64,000 nt of DNA, taken from positions 7,410 to 71,409 of the forward strand of contig JAUWAW010000002.1 of assembly GCA_030601865.1 (NCBI GenBank). The letters are read 5' to 3'. Numbering within the stretch: the first letter of the stretch is position 1; every line of letters begins with the position of its first letter. The DNA is from Candidatus Nealsonbacteria bacterium (GTDB lineage Bacteria > Patescibacteriota > Minisyncoccia > Minisyncoccales > JAUWAW01). The position numbers and the translations under genes were made by a program. The notes below the pieces were generated by a model that was not told where the DNA came from, made no database searches, and worked only from the letters and a program-made list of their open reading frames with translations. Shown piece after piece: positions 7,887 through 51,666 of this stretch.

Positions 7887-8388
7887 ATTTAAGTACTTCT
7901 CTTAAAATCTTTTTAAACCAATAAGCGTAGTTTTCAGGGTGTTGTTTTATGTCTTTTTTTAAATCTCGTGGGTTTATCCATTGCCAATCTTCAGCTTCCC
8001 TTTTGTTTATTTTTGGGCTGCCATCAAATTTCCCCACAAATACATGGTCAAACTCATATTCAATTAAATTGCCGAAATCTGTCCGATAAACAAAACTAAA
8101 AATTTCTTTTAGGGCGCAGTCAATGCCCATTTCTTCTTTTAATCTTCGCTTGACTTCTTGGATAAGATTTTTGTTCGGCCTTGGATGAGAACAACAAGTA
8201 TTGCTCCAAAGCCCGGCTGAATGATATTTTGTGCTGGCTCTTTTTTGAAGCAAAAGTTCTCCTTGAGAGTTAAAAATAAAAATTGAAAAAGAACGGTGAA
8301 GTTTGCCCTGTTGGTGAACTTTCATTTTCTCGCCAGTTCCAATTTTGTTATCTTCTTCATCAACAAGAATTATTTCTCTTTTGGTCAT
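7864..8388 (-). CDS. idi: Isopentenyl-diphosphate delta-isomerase type 1 (Nudix fold)
   Basis: HQQGKLHRSFSIFIFNSQGELLLQKRASTKYHSAGLWSNTCCSHPR matches the IDI-1 signature, including the catalytic Cys region. Confidence 0.8.
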   Translation of the reverse strand: MTKREIILVDEEDNKIGTGEKMKVHQQGKLHRSFSIFIFNSQGELLLQKRASTKYHSAGLWSNTCCSHPRPNKNLIQEVKRRLKEEMGIDCALKEIFSFVYRTDFGNLIEYEFDHVFVGKFDGSPKINKREAEDWQWINPRDLKKDIKQHPENYAYWFKKILREVLKYAKQRKG

Positions 8389-34534: not shown

Positions 34535-35095
34535 TTATTTTTGCCGACCTTGTATTTTTTTTCGTTGGGTTAATAGTTTAACAAGGGCCTGAATAAGTTT
34601 TTTGGGTTCAGATTCAAAAATAATTTTTTCTCCTCTTCTGTGAGGTTTTCTAAGAAAGTTTTTTATAATGTCAGCCGTGCCCCCAGAGCCCTTTAATATC
34701 CCGATGGGCTTGCGGTCTTCAAAGGCAATGGTAAATTCATTTAAGGTGCCCATGCGGCCACAAATAATAACGACCGCATCAGCCGCACGCGTCATCAACA
34801 GATTTCTGCCAGAGTAATCAAAACCAGTATAGACCATAACATCAAAACAATCTAAGGGAAGCCGGTAGACCTTTCTGTGCTCTAATTCTGAAGCAGCCGG
34901 AGAAAAACCAATGCTGACACCGCCGGCCTCTTTAACAGCACGCGCTGCAAAATAAGGTGCACCGGTTGTGGCACCGGTAATTAAAACACAGTTCTGCTTG
35001 ACAATTTCTCTGCCTACCTCTCTGGCTAAATCCTTGATATTGACTGCGCAATGGTCTACTTGAGAAGCACCAGCCACAGCAATTTTATATTTCAT
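34535..35095 (-). CDS. TIGR00725/LOG-like (SLOG superfamily) Rossmann protein, paralogue 1
   Basis: ITGATTGAPYFAARAV and the GRMGTLNEF (PGGxGTxxE-like) motif. Confidence 0.7.
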   Translation of the reverse strand: MKYKIAVAGASQVDHCAVNIKDLAREVGREIVKQNCVLITGATTGAPYFAARAVKEAGGVSIGFSPAASELEHRKVYRLPLDCFDVMVYTGFDYSGRNLLMTRAADAVVIICGRMGTLNEFTIAFEDRKPIGILKGSGGTADIIKNFLRKPHRRGEKIIFESEPKKLIQALVKLLTQRKKIQGRQK

Positions 35096-35154: not shown

Positions 35155-35306
35155 TCAAACAAATAAACCCTTCGTTTTCAGAAGGATTTATTTATGAGGA
35201 GAGGAAGAATCTCAACGCTCTTGATCCCTCGAGCTAATCAGGCAATGACTAGGCAGCCGCTAAGACCTCCTTCATTAAGATTCGCTTGCCTTTACACCTC
35301 TCCTCA
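35155..35306 (-). ncRNA. Structured RNA of unknown class with its own promoter and terminator (sRNA or riboswitch-like leader)
   Basis: 10-bp closing helix UGAGGAGAGG (35306-35297) / CCUCUCCUCA (35204-35195), extended by GAAUCU/AGAUUC and enclosing about 90 nt. Immediately followed by the terminator AAAUAAAUCCUUC-ugaaaac-GAAGGGUUUAUUU + GUUUG. Confidence 0.45.
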
Positions 35307-35312
35307 ATTTTT

Positions 35313-35340
35313 ATATTAATGCTTCCAAATTGTCTGTCAA
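35313..35340 (-). promoter_or_regulatory. Sigma-70-type promoter of the structured RNA
   Basis: TTGACA (35340-35335), 16-nt spacer, TAATAT (35318-35313). The helix starts 7 nt downstream. Confidence 0.55.
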
Positions 35341-35357: not shown

Positions 35358-35377
35358 TTATCCACAACTTATTCACA
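35358..35377. promoter_or_regulatory. Two tandem DnaA boxes
   Basis: TTATCCACA (35358-66), AC, TTATTCACA (35369-77). Both fit TTATNCACA and lie just upstream of the promoter. Confidence 0.45.
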
Positions 35378-35392
35378 TTTTACTTAAACTGA

Positions 35393-35464
35393 TGCCCCTA
35401 GCAGGAATCGAACCTGCACCTTGACCTCCGGAGGGTCACGTTCTATCCATTAAACTACAGGGGC
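35393..35464 (-). tRNA. tRNA-Arg (anticodon CCG)
   Basis: Acceptor GCCCCTG/TAGGGGC, D arm GTTT-AATGGATA-GAAC, anticodon arm TGACC-CTCCGGA-GGTCA, T arm GCAGG-TTCGATT-CCTGC. Confidence 0.85.
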
Positions 35465-36201
35465 TTTTCTGCTACAATATAGAAATTGGAGTTTGGGCTT
35501 TTCTCGCGGGAAACAATGATTTGGTCGCTCTTTTTTATGTTAAGCTCTACTTTCCCAATTAGTCCTTCCAGTTCTTTTTTAGTAAAACAATGAAAGTAAC
35601 ATTTGGGCAGACCTGCAAAAGGAATTATAATATCATTGGAACCACACTTCCTTTTAGGATGACTCCGCAAATTCCAAACTGTCAAAATCAACAATCCCTT
35701 GGGTCGCAGCACTCGCTTTGCTTGTCTTAGAAACTTCAACCGTAAGGCCTCTGACGGAATATGGTGCAGCACAGCAATGCTGTAAATCTTGTCAAAAAAA
35801 TTCTTGGGAAAAGGCAAATTCAAAGCGTCAGCTACCTGAAATTTTGCCTTTGGGTACTTGTTTTTAGCAATCTCAATTAATTTTTCAGAATTATCCACGC
35901 CAATATAGTCAATATCCTTGTCTTTCAAAATCTCAAAAAATCTGCCATTGCCACAGCCCAAATCCAATACTTTGTCTCCGGGGACTAAATAATCGTCAAA
36001 CAAAAACCTGAATTCGTCCCAAACTTTCTGTCTTCTGCTTGAAAATTGTTGGGCAAATTTATTATAATATTGGTAATGTTTTTTTATGTCAATTTTAGAA
36101 AAAATAATTTTAGAACTATTAAAATCTCGTGTCAAAACCCGGGCTGATTTGGATTCGTTCAAAAGAAAAGTGGCCAAAGAGTATAAAACTCCCTGCCCCA
36201 C
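35455..36201 (-). CDS. Class I SAM-dependent methyltransferase (start uncertain)
   Basis: Motif I VLDLGCGNGRF and post-I DYIGVDNS. The track start overlaps elp3 by 116 nt. A TTGACA-17-TAAAAT promoter at about 36096-36124 suggests a shorter, non-ATG-initiated product. The last 3 codons overlap the tRNA. Confidence 0.65.
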   Translation of the reverse strand: MGQGVLYSLATFLLNESKSARVLTRDFNSSKIIFSKIDIKKHYQYYNKFAQQFSSRRQKVWDEFRFLFDDYLVPGDKVLDLGCGNGRFFEILKDKDIDYIGVDNSEKLIEIAKNKYPKAKFQVADALNLPFPKNFFDKIYSIAVLHHIPSEALRLKFLRQAKRVLRPKGLLILTVWNLRSHPKRKCGSNDIIIPFAGLPKCYFHCFTKKELEGLIGKVELNIKKSDQIIVSREKSPNSNFYIVAEKPL

Positions 36202-37741
36202 TAATGTAGAATTACTTAAAACTTACCACAAATTGGTTAAAAAGAAAAGGTTGAAGAAAGACGGGGTAATAGAAAAGTTGCTTTGCACCAGGCCTATTCG
36301 TTCGCTTTCTGGCATTGTTAATGTCTCTGTTTTAACTAAGCCCTATCCCTGCCCGGGTCAATGTATTTTCTGCCCCAGCCAAAAAGGCATTCCCAAAAGT
36401 TATTTAAGGGGCGAACCTGCGGTTCAAAGGGCGATTTTAAATAAGTTTAATCCCTATTCGCAGGTCCAAACACGGCTAAAAAGTTTGCAAAAAACAGGCC
36501 ACCCAATAGACAAAATTGAATTAAGAATAATCGGTGGAACCTGGTCTTATTATCCCAAACAATATCAAACCCGGTTTGTTAAAGAATGCTTCCAAGCTTG
36601 CAACGAATTTTCTCCCCTAAAACAAATACGCCATAAGAAAGCCATGGCAGAATTACGGCGTATTAAGGAAAAGGAATTGGAAAAAGAATTGAAGAAAGAG
36701 CAAAAAGCAAACGAGAAAGCCAAGTGTCGGGTGGTTGGAATAACAATTGAAACTAGGCCAGATTATATAGATATTAAAGAAATAAAGCGGATGAGAGAAC
36801 TGGGCATAACCAGGGTGGAATTGGGGGTGCAAAGCATTTACAATGATGTTTTGAAATTAAACAAAAGGGGCCATGGCATAGAAGCGACAATTAAAGCAAC
36901 CAAACTTCTGAAAGAGTCCGGCTTTAAGGTTTCTTATCAAATGATGCCCAATTTGCCCGGCAGTACCTCCAAAAAAGACGTAAAAATGTTTGAAGAGATT
37001 TTTGAAAACCCTGATTTCCAACCCGACCTCTTGAAAATTTATCCCTTGGCCTTGCTCAAAGAAGCTCCTTTGTATAAATGGTATCAAAGAGGAAAGTTTA
37101 AACCGTATTCTGATAAAAAATTAATTAAGCTTTTAATAGAAATCAAAAAGAAAATCCCTTATTGGTGCAGAATCCAAAGGGTAATCCGGGATATTCCCTC
37201 AGCAGATATTGTTGAAGGAGGAGTTAAAATCTCAAATTTAAGAGAAGTTGTTCAAAAAGAAATGAAGAAGCAAGGATTGAAATGCAAATGCATCAGATGC
37301 CGGGAGGTGAAAAAAGATTACAACTCCCAAGAAAAATCTGTGCTTTTTCGCCAGGACTATAATGCCTCTGGCGGCAAGGAGGTATTTCTGACTTTTGAAG
37401 ATAAAAAAAGACAAAAACTCTATGCTCTGCTCCGCCTGCGCATCCCCTATCCAAAAGTGGCAAAGGACAGTCCTCTGCCAATTCTGAAGGATGCGGCGAT
37501 AATTAGGGAGGTTCATACTTATGGTCAACTCCTACCCATTCAACACAGAGATAGGACGAAAATAGGACAGTCGCCTCAACATAAGGGGTTAGGCAAAAAA
37601 CTGATTAAGCAGGGAGAAGAAATCGCCAAACAAGAGTTTGGCACAAAAAAAATAGCCGTCATCTCCGGCGTGGGAGTCAGGGCATATTACAGAAAACTCG
37701 GCTATCACCTGAAGGATACTTATATGATTAAAAAACTGTAA
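36086..37741 (+). CDS. elp3: Elp3-type radical SAM/GNAT tRNA U34 modification enzyme
   Basis: Radical-SAM cluster region PCPGQCIFCPS, VVGITIETRPD, RVELGVQS, and C-terminal GNAT QHKGLGKKLIKQGEEIA. Confidence 0.85.
   Translation: MSILEKIILELLKSRVKTRADLDSFKRKVAKEYKTPCPTNVELLKTYHKLVKKKRLKKDGVIEKLLCTRPIRSLSGIVNVSVLTKPYPCPGQCIFCPSQKGIPKSYLRGEPAVQRAILNKFNPYSQVQTRLKSLQKTGHPIDKIELRIIGGTWSYYPKQYQTRFVKECFQACNEFSPLKQIRHKKAMAELRRIKEKELEKELKKEQKANEKAKCRVVGITIETRPDYIDIKEIKRMRELGITRVELGVQSIYNDVLKLNKRGHGIEATIKATKLLKESGFKVSYQMMPNLPGSTSKKDVKMFEEIFENPDFQPDLLKIYPLALLKEAPLYKWYQRGKFKPYSDKKLIKLLIEIKKKIPYWCRIQRVIRDIPSADIVEGGVKISNLREVVQKEMKKQGLKCKCIRCREVKKDYNSQEKSVLFRQDYNASGGKEVFLTFEDKKRQKLYALLRLRIPYPKVAKDSPLPILKDAAIIREVHTYGQLLPIQHRDRTKIGQSPQHKGLGKKLIKQGEEIAKQEFGTKKIAVISGVGVRAYYRKLGYHLKDTYMIKKL
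36625..36664. repeat. AATACGCC palindrome, copy C3, in frame in elp3
   Basis: AATACGCCATAAGAAAGCCATGGCAGAATTACGGCGTATT, translated as IRHKKAMAELRRI. Confidence 0.75.
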
Positions 37742-37805: not shown

Positions 37806-38540
37806 CTATAGATGTTCCTTCAGCCAAGCCAGAGAATGCTTAATCAATTCGTCCTTGGCTTGATGGCTTTCGAAATTATGCTCTGCGTCTTTGACATAAA
37901 AACTACGCTCCCAAGCACCAAGCTTTTCACATACATCTCTAACAAATTCTGATGGAACATCTTTGTCAACAGAACCATGGATAACCAAAGTAGCAGTATG
38001 CACTAAGGCAACCTTCTTCAACCAATCATAGTTTAGGGCCTCCTTAAAATACTGCCAGCCAACTCTGCCTTTTGGGGTGTCCAAATAGCCCTGTTTGCTA
38101 CACAAAGCTATTTCATCTTCGCTGTACCACTGTCTTATCAATTCTCTCTGCTGAATGGCCGGTGAAATCAAGATTAGAGGCCCTGTTTTGCGCAATCTAA
38201 GATGGAGCAAAATCGCAATTAATGCCCCAATGCTATGGCCTATTAAAACAACCTTCTCGCTACTCATTCTTTGAGATGTTATAAGGCTATCAAAGGCCTC
38301 TTCTGCGTCAGAGAGGAATTGGATAATATTCGCCTCCTGAGATGCCTTTACTGACTCACCATGACCGGTAAAATCAAACCTCAAAGTAGAGTCAACAACG
38401 CCAGCATTCATTAATGCTTTTGAGAGCTCCACTAAAGGCCTGTGCGATTTTGACTTGCCCCAGCCATGCATTATTAAGGCAGTCGATCTTCTATCCATTT
38501 TCTCCTCCTTTTTGTTTTTACTTTCTTTTGTTAAGCTCAT
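37806..38540 (-). CDS. Alpha/beta hydrolase
   Basis: Nucleophile elbow GHSIGA, with an HGW..S N-terminal oxyanion region and a C-terminal His. Confidence 0.7.
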   Translation of the reverse strand: MSLTKESKNKKEEKMDRRSTALIMHGWGKSKSHRPLVELSKALMNAGVVDSTLRFDFTGHGESVKASQEANIIQFLSDAEEAFDSLITSQRMSSEKVVLIGHSIGALIAILLHLRLRKTGPLILISPAIQQRELIRQWYSEDEIALCSKQGYLDTPKGRVGWQYFKEALNYDWLKKVALVHTATLVIHGSVDKDVPSEFVRDVCEKLGAWERSFYVKDAEHNFESHQAKDELIKHSLAWLKEHL

Positions 38541-39093
38541 TGATTACTTTTTCAACCAAAGCTTTCGGGTCAGGGTCTAAAACCAAAACAGCGCCAGTAT
38601 CTTTTTGGATGGTCTCAGCAATCCCAAGCAATTTTTCTGAAATCCCGCCCGTACCTTCCAAAATGCCGATAACCTTGCCTCTTTGATAAGCAGAAGCAAA
38701 CTCGTTCAGGGTGCCAGCAGAGCCAGCACAAAAAATTACTGCATCGCAGTTCATAATAGCAAGAACAATGCGGCCTTCCCTGCCCATTCCCGTAAAAATG
38801 AGATTAGTTCCTTCGGGAGGCAGAGGATAACTAATAGGTGGCTCTGTGTGTCCTTTCAAGTCAGAAGCAGGCGAAAATCCAAGAACTATACCTTCTTCCT
38901 CTCTGGCCCCAACAGCTGCCTCATGAGGTGTACCCATGCAAGCGCCCGTTATCAGAATACAGCCGCTCTTTGCCACTTCTCGACCAAGCTCTCTTGCTTT
39001 TTGTAAAAGAACAGGGGGCAACTCCTTGCCCCTTCCAGCGCTACCCATAAATCCAATTCTGCAATACATTTTGCTCCTCCTTCCTTTTGGCAT
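38518..39093 (-). CDS. TIGR00725/LOG-like (SLOG superfamily) Rossmann protein, paralogue 2
   Basis: ITGACMGTPHEAAVGA and GSAGTLNEF. 23-nt overlap with the hydrolase gene. Confidence 0.7.
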   Translation of the reverse strand: MPKGRRSKMYCRIGFMGSAGRGKELPPVLLQKARELGREVAKSGCILITGACMGTPHEAAVGAREEEGIVLGFSPASDLKGHTEPPISYPLPPEGTNLIFTGMGREGRIVLAIMNCDAVIFCAGSAGTLNEFASAYQRGKVIGILEGTGGISEKLLGIAETIQKDTGAVLVLDPDPKALVEKVINELNKRK

Positions 39094-39398
39094 TGCTTTG
39101 ACGAAGATACCTTACCAGAATTTTAACCTTTTGTCAAACTCTGTTTCAATCTGCTCCGATCGGAGTAATTTGAAACGCTTTACCAAAAAATAAAAATGTT
39201 TAAAACTCACGATCGTGAGTTATTTAAACAAAGAAAAATATAATAGCCGTCCCGCAAGGAACGGCGGATAAGTTCACTGAGAGAAAATGCCTCCAGTAAA
39301 ACCGATTTTCCCTCTGTTTGCTGCTTCATTACAATTGCCCCCTTTCTGTTCTATGAGGTTTCTCTTTCTTCACAAATTGGTAAAGTTCTAATCTCCTG

Positions 39399-39471
39399 CG
39401 GCCCCAATCGGATTTGAACCGGTGTTACGTGGATGAGAACCACGCGTCCTAAGCCACTAGACGATGGGGCC
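39399..39471 (-). tRNA. tRNA-Glu (anticodon CUC)
   Basis: Acceptor GGCCCCA/TGGGGCC, D arm GTCT-AGTGGCTTA-GGAC, anticodon arm CGTGG-TTCTCAT-CCACG, T arm ACCGG-TTCAAAT-CCGAT (one C-A mismatch). Confidence 0.8.
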
Positions 39472-49107: not shown

Positions 49108-51666
49108 TTATTCCTCTACAACGATGTAGGGCTTGTTAGAAGAGTTTATTCCTGCTTCGTCGTACCAAATTGGTCTTTTCATGCTGTCCATTACTTCTGC
49201 TCGCCATTTTTCGTCTGTGAGGCGGTCTTTCATGGGCCAGGCAAACTCAAAATAACTAAACATTGGTCCTATGGCAATTCCTATTCTGCCCTCTTTGCTC
49301 TTGTGCGCCACCAGTAGCCAATCAACTTTGCCAGTGCCAACTTCTAAAACCTTCTTGGTGTTTGTTTCGGTATGCACATCAGCAATCATACTTGTTTTGA
49401 AGGCTTCATCCTTGCCCTCAAGTGAGGTCTCTTCTATAAGTCCCGGCTTCATCAAGGGTTTCTTCTCTTTTATGGTCAAAGCAGAAGCCAATTTCTGCAA
49501 GATATTGTTAAACTGTTCATCAATATCTTTGATGTAGTTATAGTCGTTTTCGGTTAGCGCTTCGCCTTGAAGTTCTTTTTCTGAAATCTTCTCTAAACGT
49601 GCCATCATCTCTGAACTTTGCTGCAGCGCTAAGGCAACCTCATCTGTCATCACGCCCTGTTCTTTCAGGCCTGCTTCCAGATATTCAACAGCATATTTTG
49701 CCCTGGCAAATAATTCAGGATTGGCTTCAACATAACCATAGTATTTGGCCTCTATTGGCGGCATGGCTGTTTCTTTAGCCACGGCCCAAGTATAACTCTG
49801 TTTAACATACAAAATAGTATCATGCCGCAGTTCTGCCCAACTTGATAGCCCAGTGATTAGGTCTTTTAATTTCCACAATCCGCTTCTCATCCAATTAGGC
49901 AAACCATTCGGCTTTTCTTTCAGAATTGGCTGGAGCATCCAAAGCCAGGTATTGTATAGATTTTTTGTCCATTCGGTCTCATCATATGACTTTACCAATT
50001 GTTTAAGTTCTTCCTGCTTTTTATCGCAATCGCAATAACTATTGTCATAATATTCGTCCAAAACCTGCTCTGCTTTTTTAGAGCCCAAGGTATTCATCAC
50101 GTCCAGACCAGTGGGCATAAACCGGCAGACAGAATAAAGCTTCTCTGGCTGTGTCTCGTAAAGGTTAAGCGCGACCTCGCAAACCGCATTCCAGTACTCT
50201 TCTTTACCCCACCCCCTGCCTAAACCATCTTTTTCCATATCCTGACAGGTCAAGGGCTTGCTCAGCCCCATTGCTTTCATCACTTCATTATAATAAGGCG
50301 AATCTGGATTGGGTCCAACATTCTTATAAACCAAATCGCCTAAAATTTGAGAGTCAATGGCATATCTTTGCCCTATCAGCCGCATACCCTGGGTTAAATC
50401 TTTTAGATTACCAGCCAAGTCAATTTCAAAACCGCCTAAAATCTTTGGTCCTCGCAACTTGACTATTGCCTCTCTGAATTCATCAATGTTAATATCAGCA
50501 ATGTTTTCAGCGCTAAGAGGAGTTGTTATCAACTCGTTTAAGGCCTGACTGTAATCATAAAAAGTTAAATCATCAGAGGCACCAGCAAAAAACCCAGTGA
50601 TAGAATATATCTTTTTCCACAGGTTTTCCACAGCAGCGCTTTTAACTGCTAACGTAAGTAGCAAGGCCTGTTTTGTCCAGTCATCTCCTCTGGCTTTGAA
50701 AGTAAGCCGGCCCAGCCACATCATTGCCTTAAAGTATCTTTTTAGCTCCTCAGAGCTTGTGTAGTGGCCTCTGGGCACATACTGTGAGTAATCCTCACAA
50801 TAACACTTTCTGGTGCAAACCTCTTTGTAAAACTCTAAACTGTCCCAGATTTTACCCTCATAGGGAATGTTTGCTCCTTTAACCTCCTGGCTGCATTTTT
50901 CTCCATCAGGATATTGACCACTAGTAAAAGCAAGTCCCTGGGGAAGAACTTTGTCCAAGCATTCTTCGGGGCAACCCGAGCTGAATATAGGCGATTTATA
51001 AAATCCTTTATGGTCTTCTATTCGCTGAATTTCCTGCTCCACCTCTTTTTTCACTGAAGAAGGCACTTTATAAGAGGGGTTTAACAATTTCATAGCCACT
51101 GCCAAATAAGCAATGTTTCTTTGAGCCAATTCTTTTTCAGCACCTGTTTGTTCTTCTGCCTCCTTGATTACTGCTTCTAAAAACTCTTTAAGTATTGGAG
51201 AAAGTTTTTTTATCTCTAAATTCTTCAAAATCTCATTAAATTCTATGTGGAAAAGGTGTAAAATACTGTCAGCGGTTATAAAAATAGGGATATCTTCATC
51301 GCTTAATTCGCCATAAGCATTTTCAAATCGGTCATAATCCTGACCGGCCATGATAAGAACACCATTTGTGAGTAAAATCTCTTTTTGTTCCTCTGTAAGC
51401 TGCTTACCAAATCTTTCCACAATATCTCTTTGATAATTTTCAGGCAGTTCTGACAAAGGTAAAGAATATTCAGGATTATTATAAATTGTTTCCTCAAAGG
51501 TATAAGCAGGGAAACTTGAAGCCAAAGCCAGAGGAGGAAATAAAATATCAGACAAGGGCGGTCTTTCCTCTTGAGGCCCCTTGCTCAGATAAGCTAAAAA
51601 TCCGAGTGCGCCAATAATCACCAGGATAACTAAGATAAAAATTTTAGAAAATGCTTTTTGGGGCAT
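49108..51666 (-). CDS. DUF3160-like large secreted/anchored protein
   Basis: N-terminal signal anchor. VPRGHYTSSEELKRYFKAMMWLGR matches my recollection of the DUF3160 core motif. First gene of the four-gene minus-strand unit. Confidence 0.6.
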   Translation of the reverse strand: MPQKAFSKIFILVILVIIGALGFLAYLSKGPQEERPPLSDILFPPLALASSFPAYTFEETIYNNPEYSLPLSELPENYQRDIVERFGKQLTEEQKEILLTNGVLIMAGQDYDRFENAYGELSDEDIPIFITADSILHLFHIEFNEILKNLEIKKLSPILKEFLEAVIKEAEEQTGAEKELAQRNIAYLAVAMKLLNPSYKVPSSVKKEVEQEIQRIEDHKGFYKSPIFSSGCPEECLDKVLPQGLAFTSGQYPDGEKCSQEVKGANIPYEGKIWDSLEFYKEVCTRKCYCEDYSQYVPRGHYTSSEELKRYFKAMMWLGRLTFKARGDDWTKQALLLTLAVKSAAVENLWKKIYSITGFFAGASDDLTFYDYSQALNELITTPLSAENIADINIDEFREAIVKLRGPKILGGFEIDLAGNLKDLTQGMRLIGQRYAIDSQILGDLVYKNVGPNPDSPYYNEVMKAMGLSKPLTCQDMEKDGLGRGWGKEEYWNAVCEVALNLYETQPEKLYSVCRFMPTGLDVMNTLGSKKAEQVLDEYYDNSYCDCDKKQEELKQLVKSYDETEWTKNLYNTWLWMLQPILKEKPNGLPNWMRSGLWKLKDLITGLSSWAELRHDTILYVKQSYTWAVAKETAMPPIEAKYYGYVEANPELFARAKYAVEYLEAGLKEQGVMTDEVALALQQSSEMMARLEKISEKELQGEALTENDYNYIKDIDEQFNNILQKLASALTIKEKKPLMKPGLIEETSLEGKDEAFKTSMIADVHTETNTKKVLEVGTGKVDWLLVAHKSKEGRIGIAIGPMFSYFEFAWPMKDRLTDEKWRAEVMDSMKRPIWYDEAGINSSNKPYIVVEE

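Follow-up and report, generated by a model that had tools for sequence, protein, structure and literature searches.

The minus strand of the stretch of DNA considered here, 64,000 nucleotides from a Candidatus Nealsonbacteria genome (referred to below as the window), carries what sequence comparison shows to be a highly structured small RNA gene, previously uncatalogued, of ultra-small groundwater bacteria (Parcubacteria/CPR). The gene is bracketed by a predicted promoter and a predicted terminator of its own, almost always sits just upstream of a LOG-type nucleotide-enzyme gene, and contains a palindrome suggesting that two copies of the RNA pair into a dimer. The same RNA occurs in about 100 loci of Patescibacteria, from which 79 distinct sequences were aligned, and it matches none of the 4227 covariance models of Rfam 15.

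The element and its surroundings

A first-pass annotation, made from the sequence alone, had described a promoter, a 112-nt element closed by a 10-bp helix, a terminator, two DnaA boxes and, downstream, a LOG-like gene heading a co-directional run. This observation is confirmed, since every one of these features is present on the minus strand. The features of the region are as follows.

35464-35393, minus strand: tRNA-Arg(CCG) gene immediately upstream (Rfam tRNA hit at 67.5 bits, also found by ARAGORN)
35377-35369 and 35366-35358, minus strand: two tandem matches to the DnaA-box consensus, TGTGAATAA and TGTGGATAA, 11 nt apart, upstream of the -35
35340-35313, minus strand: predicted promoter of the RNA gene, with -35 TTGACA (35340-35335), a 16-nt spacer and -10 TAATAT (35318-35313), matching the consensus at 10 of 12 positions
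35306-35195, minus strand: structured core of the RNA (112 nt), beginning 6 nt after the -10
35306-35297 with 35204-35195: P1, the perfect 10-bp closing helix formed by UGAGGAGAGG and CCUCUCCUCA
35291-35286 with 35245-35240: pseudoknot, AGGCAA with UUGCCU
35283-35273 with 35217-35207: P3, 11 bp
35272-35266: purine-rich AAGGAGG
35267-35265 with 35225-35223: P3b
35260-35253, minus strand: 8-nt self-complementary segment GCGGCUGC (a change to GCGGGUGC would break the palindrome), the proposed intermolecular dimerisation duplex
35252-35247 with 35239-35234: P4
35192-35160 (approximately), minus strand: predicted intrinsic terminator, AAAUAAAUCCUUC / GAAGGGUUUAUUU followed by GUUUG, an interrupted U-run
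35158-35122, minus strand: promoter-like region for the LOG gene, TTGAAA-17-TGcTAAAAT at 35158-35130, overlapping a second extended -10, TGTGATAAT, at 35130-35122
35095-34535, minus strand: SLOG cluster4 / TIGR00725-type LOG-superfamily gene (186 aa; Pfam PF18306, E = 2e-34), with its ATG at 35095
34520-34248, minus strand: gene of a 90-aa protein resembling EF-Tu domain 2, a beta-barrel (Pfam PF03144, E = 3e-9; weak PDB matches to domain 2 of EF1A and EF-Tu), second in the operon

The co-directional run that continues from the 90-aa beta-barrel gene through MgtC, a permease and holA was confirmed by Pfam. The RNA folds better than all 200 dinucleotide shuffles (-56.2 kcal/mol, z = -3.9).

The description needs correction or addition on four points. 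GAAUCU/AGAUUC does not extend the closing helix, as had been proposed, but belongs to P3, which is set apart from P1 by 13 nt on the 5' side and 2 nt on the 3' side. The interior is not one hairpin but contains the pseudoknot and the palindrome. To these may be added the promoter-like site between the terminator and LOG and the tRNA gene immediately upstream. This copy lacks an optional hairpin, P2, found in the family.

Twelve matches to the DnaA-box consensus (TTATCCACA, or TGTGGATAA on the other strand) were found in the window, against 4.9 expected, and the pair upstream of the -35 is the only tandem pair in the window outside a long ORF. Amongst 77 homologous loci, the strict motif occurs upstream of the -35 on the sense strand in 30 and never on the antisense strand, and in most loci read by eye the proximal box ends 7-8 nt before the -35. 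That DnaA acts at these sites is inferred from sequence alone.

Distribution, covariation and gene linkage

Homologues were sought in two ways. With nhmmer and two covariance models, the RNA was found in 17 of 80 LOG-anchored genome loci and in about 88 of 120 loci retrieved by a DNA pattern that made no reference to genes. The element in the window is itself a covariance-model hit at 69.9-85.5 bits (E about 1e-15 to 1e-19). No second RNA of this family was found in the window or in the gap between tRNA-Glu and the second SLOG paralogue. At gathering thresholds, Rfam recognised only tRNAs in the 64-kb window, and permissive scans placed nothing on the element at E up to 10, nor on the element in 8 homologous loci at E up to 5. 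There were no matches to phage, plasmid or viral contigs that would point to a mobile-element origin. Text searches of a paper library found no description of this RNA, and searches on CPR noncoding RNAs, TIGR00725-associated motifs and leaderless translation in Patescibacteria turned up nothing relevant.

Covariation is strong. On the 79 distinct sequences, 90.0% of cells pair, against 44-51% when partners are slid, 40 of 44 pairs show changes on both sides, and no shuffle out of 500 reaches any of the five measures. The alignments were fitted to the model, and in the metagenome set the conservation of GGACA, AUGnAGGAG and UGUCC is inflated, because the search pattern fixed those bases. However, on the 20 sequences found through the protein alone, 92% of cells pair and 36 of 44 pairs show double changes. 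The pseudoknot is kept through double changes at three different pairs: the window and homologous locus L204 have AGGCA/UGCCU, while locus L043 has GGAU/AUCC. An alternative helix, pairing the segment after P4 with the 3' strand of P3b, is only partly compatible and weaker than P3b and was left out of the model, which leaves the 15-20 nt after P4 unresolved.

All four pairs of the palindrome (75-84, 76-83, 77-82 and the adjacent 78-81) covary. A perfectly self-complementary stretch in this register, 8 nt in nearly all, is present in 69 of the 79 distinct family members, and several of the remaining 10 have 10-12-nt palindromes in a shifted register. There are more than 20 different sequences, some with G-U wobbles, which points to pairing at the level of RNA. 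The two central bases are adjacent yet complementary in 70 of 77 sequences, with four pair types. A hairpin cannot do that, so two RNA copies probably pair, although covariation cannot tell an intermolecular duplex from some other symmetric arrangement. The calculated nearest-neighbour energy of the duplex is -10.5 to -14.5 kcal/mol. Cofolding of whole molecules (RNAcofold) always favours dimers and is not informative.

The signals of a transcription unit are conserved as well. A -35 of TTGAC[AT] with a matching -10 (T[AT]N[AT][ACT]T) after 16-18 nt is found in 58 of 77 homologues, the -10 ending 2-5 nt before the start of the model. A hairpin plus U-run follows P1 within a few nt in 65 of 77 by a strict automatic test and in the other 12 by eye, with a median hairpin energy of -10.3 kcal/mol. 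The sequence is non-coding insofar as no reading frame is conserved: the frames that start at the conserved AUG (MKEVLAAA* in the window) differ in length and are broken by 1-nt indels between homologues.

The tRNA-Arg(CCG) gene lies upstream in the same orientation in 52 of 76 homologous loci. In 60 RNA loci found without reference to genes, the first downstream gene is a PF18306 SLOG in 47, a canonical PF03641 LOG paralogue in 6 and the beta-barrel gene directly in 3 (loci L085, L169 and L186), so that the last stays linked to the RNA even where LOG is missing. The whole block (radical-SAM gene, methyltransferase, tRNA-Arg, RNA, LOG, beta-barrel, MgtC, permease) is syntenic across the clade, however, and part of the linkage between RNA and LOG may therefore be inheritance rather than function.

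A stand-alone sRNA or a riboswitch

The interpretation offered by the first-pass annotation, an unknown riboswitch or stand-alone sRNA, is partly supported. The element is a self-contained unit of promoter, structure and terminator and, of the conditions named beforehand as able to overturn it, neither a lack of conservation upstream of LOG genes nor a match to a known RNA family was observed. What is not supported is the argument that a closing helix abutting a terminator shows riboswitch architecture. Of the two options, the stand-alone sRNA is the better one.

My best reading, held with moderate confidence, is that this is the gene for a new class of stand-alone, trans-acting structured sRNA in a subclade of Patescibacteria (Parcubacteria/Paceibacteria, Nealsonbacteria-like), genetically tied to the LOG / small beta-barrel operon. 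Transcription would start at a near-consensus sigma-70 promoter a few nt before P1 and stop at a strong intrinsic terminator right after it, giving a product of about 150-170 nt. The RNA folds into P1, an optional P2 hairpin, a long P3, a conserved 4x4 purine-rich internal loop (AGGA opposite AAGU-like), a short P3b and a junction carrying P4, the loop of which (UGUCC) pairs with the junction sequence GGACA to form the pseudoknot. Sequence comparison establishes the fold, the signals of the transcription unit and the gene linkage. It does not reach as far as expression in these uncultured organisms, and the promoters, the terminator and the ends of the RNA are predictions. That the 8-nt stretch next to P4 pairs between two molecules to give a symmetric homodimer, that the RNA acts in trans, most likely as a protein- or ligand-binding RNA, that its function is probably tied to the adjacent LOG-superfamily enzyme and small beta-barrel operon (and hence to nucleotide salvage or turnover), and that in many lineages its synthesis is controlled through the DnaA boxes, are all inferences.

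The main alternative, possible but less likely, is a riboswitch or other cis-acting leader, in which a ligand (a nucleobase, nucleotide, PRPP or similar) or a protein would bind the pseudoknotted aptamer and set how many polymerases pass the terminator into LOG. The RNA does lie in the same orientation 47-150 nt upstream of a LOG-superfamily gene in almost all loci, including those found without reference to genes, and stays there when the PF18306 gene is replaced by a PF03641 paralogue. Such fixed orientation and short distance are what a cis-regulator would show. The covarying, pseudoknotted fold with conserved junction and internal-loop bases resembles an aptamer, and a terminator follows P1 directly. 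Furthermore, operon-internal genes in the window lack Shine-Dalgarno sequences, so translation of LOG from a read-through transcript cannot be excluded. On the other hand, P1 and the terminator are separated by a few nt and share no nucleotides, and the terminator's 5' arm is no more complementary to the 3' half of the RNA than are shuffled arms (median z = 0.14, n = 75, only 7% below -2), so there is no antiterminator signal. Terminator sequences are unrelated between lineages, and some are REP-like repeats. An extended -10 (TGnTAnnnT) lies 4-10 nt before the LOG ATG, most often at about 6 nt, in 43 of 57 RNA-positive and 29 of 71 RNA-negative loci, and this predicted leaderless geometry occurs at other genes in the window. 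Of the related LOG loci, 64 lack the RNA, and several of these read by eye (e.g., loci L005, L011, L013-L015 and L071) keep the order tRNA-Arg, extended -10, LOG. Finally, a toxin-antitoxin-like pair (locus L171) or a NYN-like gene (locus L145) sits between the RNA and LOG, and locus L183 has an unrelated context with no LOG at all.

Two other readings are improbable. A highly divergent SRP/4.5S or 6S RNA, missed by Rfam models in CPR bacteria, is the least likely. The promoter is strong and near consensus, the gene is single-copy and next to a tRNA gene, its size is comparable, and the loop 5'-AGGA / 5'-AAGU flanking a short helix loosely recalls the SRP domain IV symmetric loop. But the permissive scans described above gave no SRP (RF00169, RF01854) or 6S match, the consensus has no GNRA-capped hairpin (about 65 nt with the palindrome and P4 occupy the place of the SRP tetraloop), and it is a branched, pseudoknotted fold without a 6S-type central bubble. 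The RNA is also absent from this locus in 64 of 81 related genome loci (17 positive, counting the window) and, where present, is almost always at this one locus. Only slightly less doubtful is an sRNA with no functional tie to LOG that would bind the anti-Shine-Dalgarno tail of 16S rRNA or titrate a CsrA-like protein. AAGGAGG is nearly invariant, although in part because of the search pattern, and is an exact Shine-Dalgarno sequence in a genome where several genes lack one, and a second GGA sits in the GGACA junction. However, another gene in the window does use a strong Shine-Dalgarno sequence, sponge RNAs carry many GGA motifs where only two conserved ones are found here, and both are engaged in structure, GGACA in the pseudoknot and the GG of AGGAGG in P3b, which covaries. 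Hammerhead or twister-like cores and a k-turn or C/D-box reading of UGAUGA...AGGA were also inspected against the consensus and rejected: G/A varies at the position corresponding to the hammerhead/C-box G, UGAUGA lies inside the covarying P3, and the 3' side of the loop has 4-5 nt rather than a GA step.

It is conceivable, though unlikely, that the RNA is a symmetric homodimeric ribonucleic cofactor or regulator of LOG-superfamily nucleotide hydrolases, and possibly of the EF-Tu-domain-2-like protein, with synthesis gated by DnaA. It would thus couple replication initiation to nucleotide salvage in genome-reduced CPR bacteria that cannot make nucleotides de novo, an RNA-protein partnership with no described precedent.

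Functional RNAs of Patescibacteria/CPR are almost unexplored, and a well-supported class with about 100 representatives, a pseudoknot and sequence-level evidence for obligate self-pairing is a compact candidate (about 130 nt) for the growing set of natural RNA homo-oligomers and an easy target for native gels and cryo-EM. Its tight linkage to LOG-family enzymes, whose role in CPR nucleotide salvage is unknown, and to DnaA boxes gives testable leads on how these minimal cells regulate nucleotide turnover. For annotation, it shows that a structure plus terminator upstream of a gene should not be filed by default as a riboswitch in genomes with leaderless genes.

Comparison with known RNAs

The raiA motif RNA (ModT) of Bacillota and Actinomycetota is likewise an orphan, highly structured, pseudoknotted noncoding RNA, single-copy, found preferentially between particular neighbour genes and judged not to be a riboswitch despite aptamer-like features (PMC10861870, PMC11706538). 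There is no sequence or model similarity between the two, the Rfam scans having given no hit. The raiA RNAs are about 200 nt, with variable orientation and distance to neighbours and usually no terminator expression platform (PMC10861870), while the RNA considered here is about 115-135 nt plus a terminator, in fixed orientation, 50-150 nt from LOG, and restricted to Patescibacteria.

Transcription-terminating riboswitches share with it a P1-closed multi-helix fold with a pseudoknot and conserved junction bases, immediately upstream of and co-oriented with one gene family and followed by a terminator hairpin. It differs in having no mutually exclusive antiterminator, in the promoter-like extended -10 between terminator and gene, in the persistence of that layout in relatives without the RNA, and in matching no known class.

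Palindromic pairing is listed as a recurrent dimer interface in natural RNAs (PMC12990946), amongst them the HYER1 group IIC intron-derived ribozyme (D3) and ARRPOF RNA (P10), in which, as proposed here, a conserved self-complementary stretch can only be satisfied between two copies. Their sequences and folds are unrelated to this RNA, they are much larger (HYER1 is 637 nt), and their dimers were seen by cryo-EM, whereas here dimerisation is inferred from covariation only. Assemblies of the phi29 prohead RNA (pRNA) are mentioned in the same review. The pRNA, at roughly 120 nt, assembles with itself through short Watson-Crick loop contacts, and the GGACA / UGUCC contact could in principle also form in trans. 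The RNA described here has no phage context and no similarity to pRNA, the interface of which is loop-loop between different loops, not a palindrome.

The element and its surroundings

The arrangement described in the first-pass annotation, a promoter followed by a 112-nt element closed by a 10-bp helix, a terminator and two upstream DnaA boxes, is indeed present. The minus strand carries, in order:

35464-35393 (-), tRNA-Arg(CCG)
35377-35369 (-), DnaA-box match TGTGAATAA
35366-35358 (-), DnaA-box match TGTGGATAA
35340-35335 (-), TTGACA (-35), then 16 nt
35318-35313 (-), TAATAT (-10), the promoter matching 10 of 12 consensus positions
35306-35195 (-), six nt later, the 112-nt element, whose ends form a perfect 10-bp helix
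about 35192-35160 (-), a hairpin with a U-rich tail
35158-35130 (-), a second promoter-like site, TTGAAA-17-TGcTAAAAT
35095 (-), the ATG of the LOG gene

The predicted fold of the 158-nt stretch has an energy of -56.2 kcal/mol, better than all 200 dinucleotide shuffles (z = -3.9). Three things were missed in the first-pass annotation: the second promoter-like site, between the terminator and the LOG ATG; the assignment of the GAAUCU/AGAUUC pairing, read there as an extension of the closing helix, to a separate 11-bp helix; and the presence of a pseudoknot and a palindrome in the interior.

The LOG-like protein (PF18306, SLOG cluster4) has its closest relatives (65-79% identity) in metagenome-assembled Patescibacteria labelled Nealsonbacteria, Paceibacterota, Tagabacteria or Parcubacteria. 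The exact protein was found only on Logan metagenome contigs. The window has 37-42% G+C.

Upstream of the element, the mechanically called 248-aa methyltransferase ORF (35455-36201, minus strand) overlaps the tRNA-Arg gene by 10 nt and also overlaps the start of the divergent ELP3-like radical-SAM/GNAT gene (36086-37741, plus strand). Public gene calls give 170 aa in L001 (L numbers refer to individual retrieved loci), so the true start is probably further downstream. The antisense strand of tRNA-Arg (35392-35464, plus strand), and the same position in L091, L157, L089 and L044, gives sub-threshold hits to the Rfam family Plastid-ycf2 (RF04354, 26-38 bits against a gathering score of 65.7). 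That model appears to be picking up reverse-complemented tRNA, and the hits are therefore an artefact.

Conservation and predicted structure

In order to assess whether the element is conserved, I fetched 80 genome loci through the LOG protein. A search with nhmmer, using the element in the window, found weak but collinear matches just upstream of LOG in 11 of them. A covariance model built from 12 sequences found the element in 17 of the 81 sources searched (the window and the 80 genome loci), always on the LOG strand. To remove the gene anchor, the metagenome collection was scanned with a DNA pattern taken from three conserved stretches of the RNA. Of the 120 loci returned, 88 matched the covariance models, at 64-133 bits (E-values, which come from a shortened calibration, are rough), and the rest are the chance matches expected for such a pattern. 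A refined model found nothing in 60 of the 64 RNA-negative LOG loci (the first model had found nothing in any of the 64), but it did find the RNA in four further contigs fetched through close LOG relatives. Absence here means absence from the roughly 5-14 kb examined per locus, not from the rest of the genome. The final alignment holds 89 sequences, 79 of them distinct. There is no match in phage or plasmid records or in viral contigs, and no Rfam family matches the RNA, in the window or in eight homologous loci.

On the 79 distinct sequences, a model of 44 pairs gives 90.0% standard pairs, against 79% after column shuffling and 44-51% when the 3' partners are slid by 1-3 columns. Changes on both sides are found in 40 pairs, and the covariation score is 0.451, against 0.07-0.12 for the slid controls. 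No shuffle out of 500 reached any measure. The alignment is fitted to the model, however, and part of the metagenome set was fetched with fixed bases, so that the conservation of GGACA, AUGnAGGAG and UGUCC in that set is partly imposed by the search pattern. I therefore repeated the count on the 20 sequences found through the protein only, which gave 92.0% paired against 42-49%, 36 of 44 pairs with double changes, and a score of 0.562 against 0.11-0.14. Related sequences share inherited changes, so these counts of cells are not counts of events.

The predicted fold consists of P1 (8-10 bp, G-rich); P2, a small hairpin that is absent in the window and in L152/L207, L204, L004 and L043; P3 (12 pairs in three runs); a 4x4 internal loop (5' AGGA, 3' AAGU-like); P3b (3 bp, with covariation such as GGC/GCC, GAU/AUC, GGU/ACC and AGU/ACU); and P4 (6 bp). 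The P4 loop, (A/U)UGUCC, pairs with the junction sequence GGACA between P2 and P3. This pseudoknot is nearly invariant, and where it does vary it changes on both sides: the window and L204 have AGGCA/UGCCU, which is two pairs changed, and L043 has GGAU/AUCC. Many G-U pairs (for example 46 U-G at columns 52-147) would be A-C mismatches on the other strand, and the reverse strand also scores near zero. The minus strand of the window is therefore the functional one. The 15-20 nt after P4 are variable and could not be resolved.

Between the A-rich junction and P4 lies an 8-nt segment that is self-complementary in 69 of the 79 distinct sequences. More than 20 different versions were counted, including GCAGCUGC, GGAUAUCC, GUAGCUAC, GGACGUCC, UGAGCUCG, GCGCGUGC and GUGUACAC. 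Several of the ten exceptions are 10-12-nt palindromes in a shifted register, for example AAAGGUACCUUU. All four pair positions covary. The innermost pair joins two adjacent nucleotides, yet it is complementary in 70 of 77 sequences, with four pair types, and adjacent bases cannot pair within a hairpin. G-U wobbles (18 at the outer pair) argue for symmetry at the level of RNA rather than DNA. The simplest reading, inferred from covariation and not observed, is an 8-bp duplex between two RNA molecules, with a calculated energy of -10.5 to -14.5 kcal/mol, which would make the RNA a symmetric homodimer. Palindromic pairing is a recognised interface in natural RNA dimers (PMC12990946).

Transcription signals and gene linkage

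Promoters and terminators were identified as consensus matches, and the unit they delimit is to that extent predicted. Every copy read has a TTGACA -35, and a -10 matching T[AT]N[AT][ACT]T follows after 16-18 nt in 58 of 77. The -10 ends 2-5 nt before the start of the model, so transcription would begin at or just before P1. A GC-rich hairpin plus U-run follows P1 by a few nt in all copies read, with a median hairpin energy of -10.3 kcal/mol. The terminator sequences are unrelated between lineages. A recurrent inverted-repeat element resembling a REP or MITE element, CCCCGTTAGAAAT...ATTTCTAACGGGG, is scattered in the intergenic DNA of many of these Patescibacteria (L028:2403-2470; also L021, L129, L047, L088, L114, L122, L202 and L016, downstream or upstream of LOG). 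In some loci it serves as the RNA's terminator hairpin (L028, L088, L203), and in others it is inserted between the terminator and LOG. In a test for an antiterminator, the 5' arm of the terminator proved no more complementary to the last 45 nt of the RNA than shuffled arms are (median z of 0.14, only 7% below -2, n = 75).

The strict DnaA-box motif TGTG[GA]A[AT]AA, which equals the general DnaA-box consensus, occurs on the sense strand upstream of the -35 in 30 of 77 loci and never on the antisense strand. It is often a tandem pair 11 nt apart, with the proximal box ending 7-8 nt before the -35. In the window the pattern is enriched (12 matches against 4.9 expected), and the pair at 35358-35377 is the only tandem pair outside a long ORF. 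A second tandem pair of DnaA-box-like motifs with the same 11-nt spacing (TGTGGAAAA, 2 nt, TGTGGAAAA; 50613-50632, minus strand) lies inside an 852-aa ORF (49108-51666) and is probably coincidental.

Right after the U-run comes an extended -10 (TGnTAnnnT), and the LOG ATG follows 4-10 nt later, most often at about 6 nt, in 43 of 57 distinct RNA-positive loci. This is the geometry of a leaderless mRNA. The window itself is an exception, its extended -10 boxes lying about 26-34 nt before the ATG. Elsewhere in the window, an extended -10 box lies 5-9 nt before an ATG that opens an ORF of 80 aa or more at 9 of 21 such sites (30509, 36071 and 41692 on the plus strand; 56997, 45870, 29811, 15584, 9694 and 3506 on the minus strand), against 21% for all ATGs, so leaderless mRNAs look common in this genome. 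The operon-internal genes (beta-barrel, MgtC, permease and holA) have no Shine-Dalgarno sequence, and the lack of one before LOG therefore says nothing about translation from a read-through transcript.

In several related species without the RNA (for example L005, L011, L013, L014, L015 and L071), the tRNA-Arg gene is followed directly by the same extended -10 and LOG. In two loci extra genes are inserted between the RNA's terminator and LOG. In L171, about 80-1000 nt downstream of the RNA (8003-8136), there is a pair of 82 aa plus 232 aa that looks like a nucleotidyltransferase-type toxin-antitoxin module, and in L145, about 280-590 nt downstream of the RNA, a 101-aa protein that looks NYN/LabA-like (both assignments made by eye alone). 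L183 has the RNA in an unrelated context.

The whole block is syntenic across the clade: ELP3-like radical-SAM gene (opposite strand), methyltransferase, tRNA-Arg(CCG), RNA, LOG, 90-aa beta-barrel, MgtC and permease. The conserved block of ELP3-like gene, methyltransferase and tRNA hints at a tRNA-modification theme next to the RNA.

Table. First gene downstream of the RNA among the 60 gene-agnostic hits with at least 500 nt of downstream sequence.
First downstream gene: number of loci
PF18306 SLOG: 47
Canonical PF03641 LOG paralogue, about 31-33% identical: 6
Beta-barrel gene directly: 3
Something else or an insertion: 4

The canonical LOG (PF03641, PGGxGTxxE motif, 233 aa) takes the place of the PF18306 SLOG after the RNA in one subclade (L161:4183-4884; also L162, L145, L168, L195 and L201), where it is still followed by the 90-aa beta-barrel gene. 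The RNA thus persists when one LOG family replaces the other, and when LOG is lost but the beta-barrel gene stays, which hints at a functional tie to this operon beyond inherited synteny but does not prove one. The nearest solved relatives of LOG are TM1055-like proteins, the Moco carrier protein and LOG enzymes, and the 90-aa protein weakly resembles domain 2 of EF1A and EF-Tu.

A second SLOG cluster4 paralogue in the window (38518-39093, minus strand; 191 aa as listed, 36% identical to the first) also lies downstream of a tRNA gene, tRNA-Glu at 39398-39471, but without the RNA. It has its own TTGACA promoter and a strong Shine-Dalgarno-like sequence (GGAAGGAGGAGC) 6 nt before an internal in-frame ATG, which may be its true start. 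A roughly 35-codon ORF and two hairpins lie in the gap (39094-39397).

Interpretation and comparison with known systems

The interpretation offered in the first-pass annotation, a possible new class of riboswitch or a stand-alone sRNA, is partly supported, the second of these being preferred here. I take the element, with moderate confidence, to be a stand-alone, constitutively terminated, trans-acting structured sRNA of a new class that self-pairs through the palindrome. The conserved purine loop and A-rich junction would be the likely binding surface for a protein or a small ligand. Comparison of sequences shows the fold, the linkage and the boundaries of the unit (the last through consensus matches), whereas dimerisation, action in trans and the identity of a partner are inferred, as are expression of the RNA and any binding of DnaA to its boxes. 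The main rival, a riboswitch or attenuator of the LOG operon, seems less likely but is kept alive by the fixed orientation and short distance and by the aptamer-like fold. A divergent housekeeping RNA such as SRP or 6S RNA, judged on the 5-14 kb available per locus, appears very unlikely, and an anti-Shine-Dalgarno or CsrA-type decoy only slightly less so.

The nearest analogue in genetic logic is the raiA motif RNA (ModT), an orphan, pseudoknotted, single-copy RNA with preferred neighbours that is judged not to be cis-regulatory (PMC10861870). In raiA, however, orientation and distance vary, and there is no sequence relationship to this RNA. The nearest analogues in quaternary logic are the palindromic dimers HYER1 and ARRPOF (PMC12990946). 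The RNA considered here is a member of none of these families.
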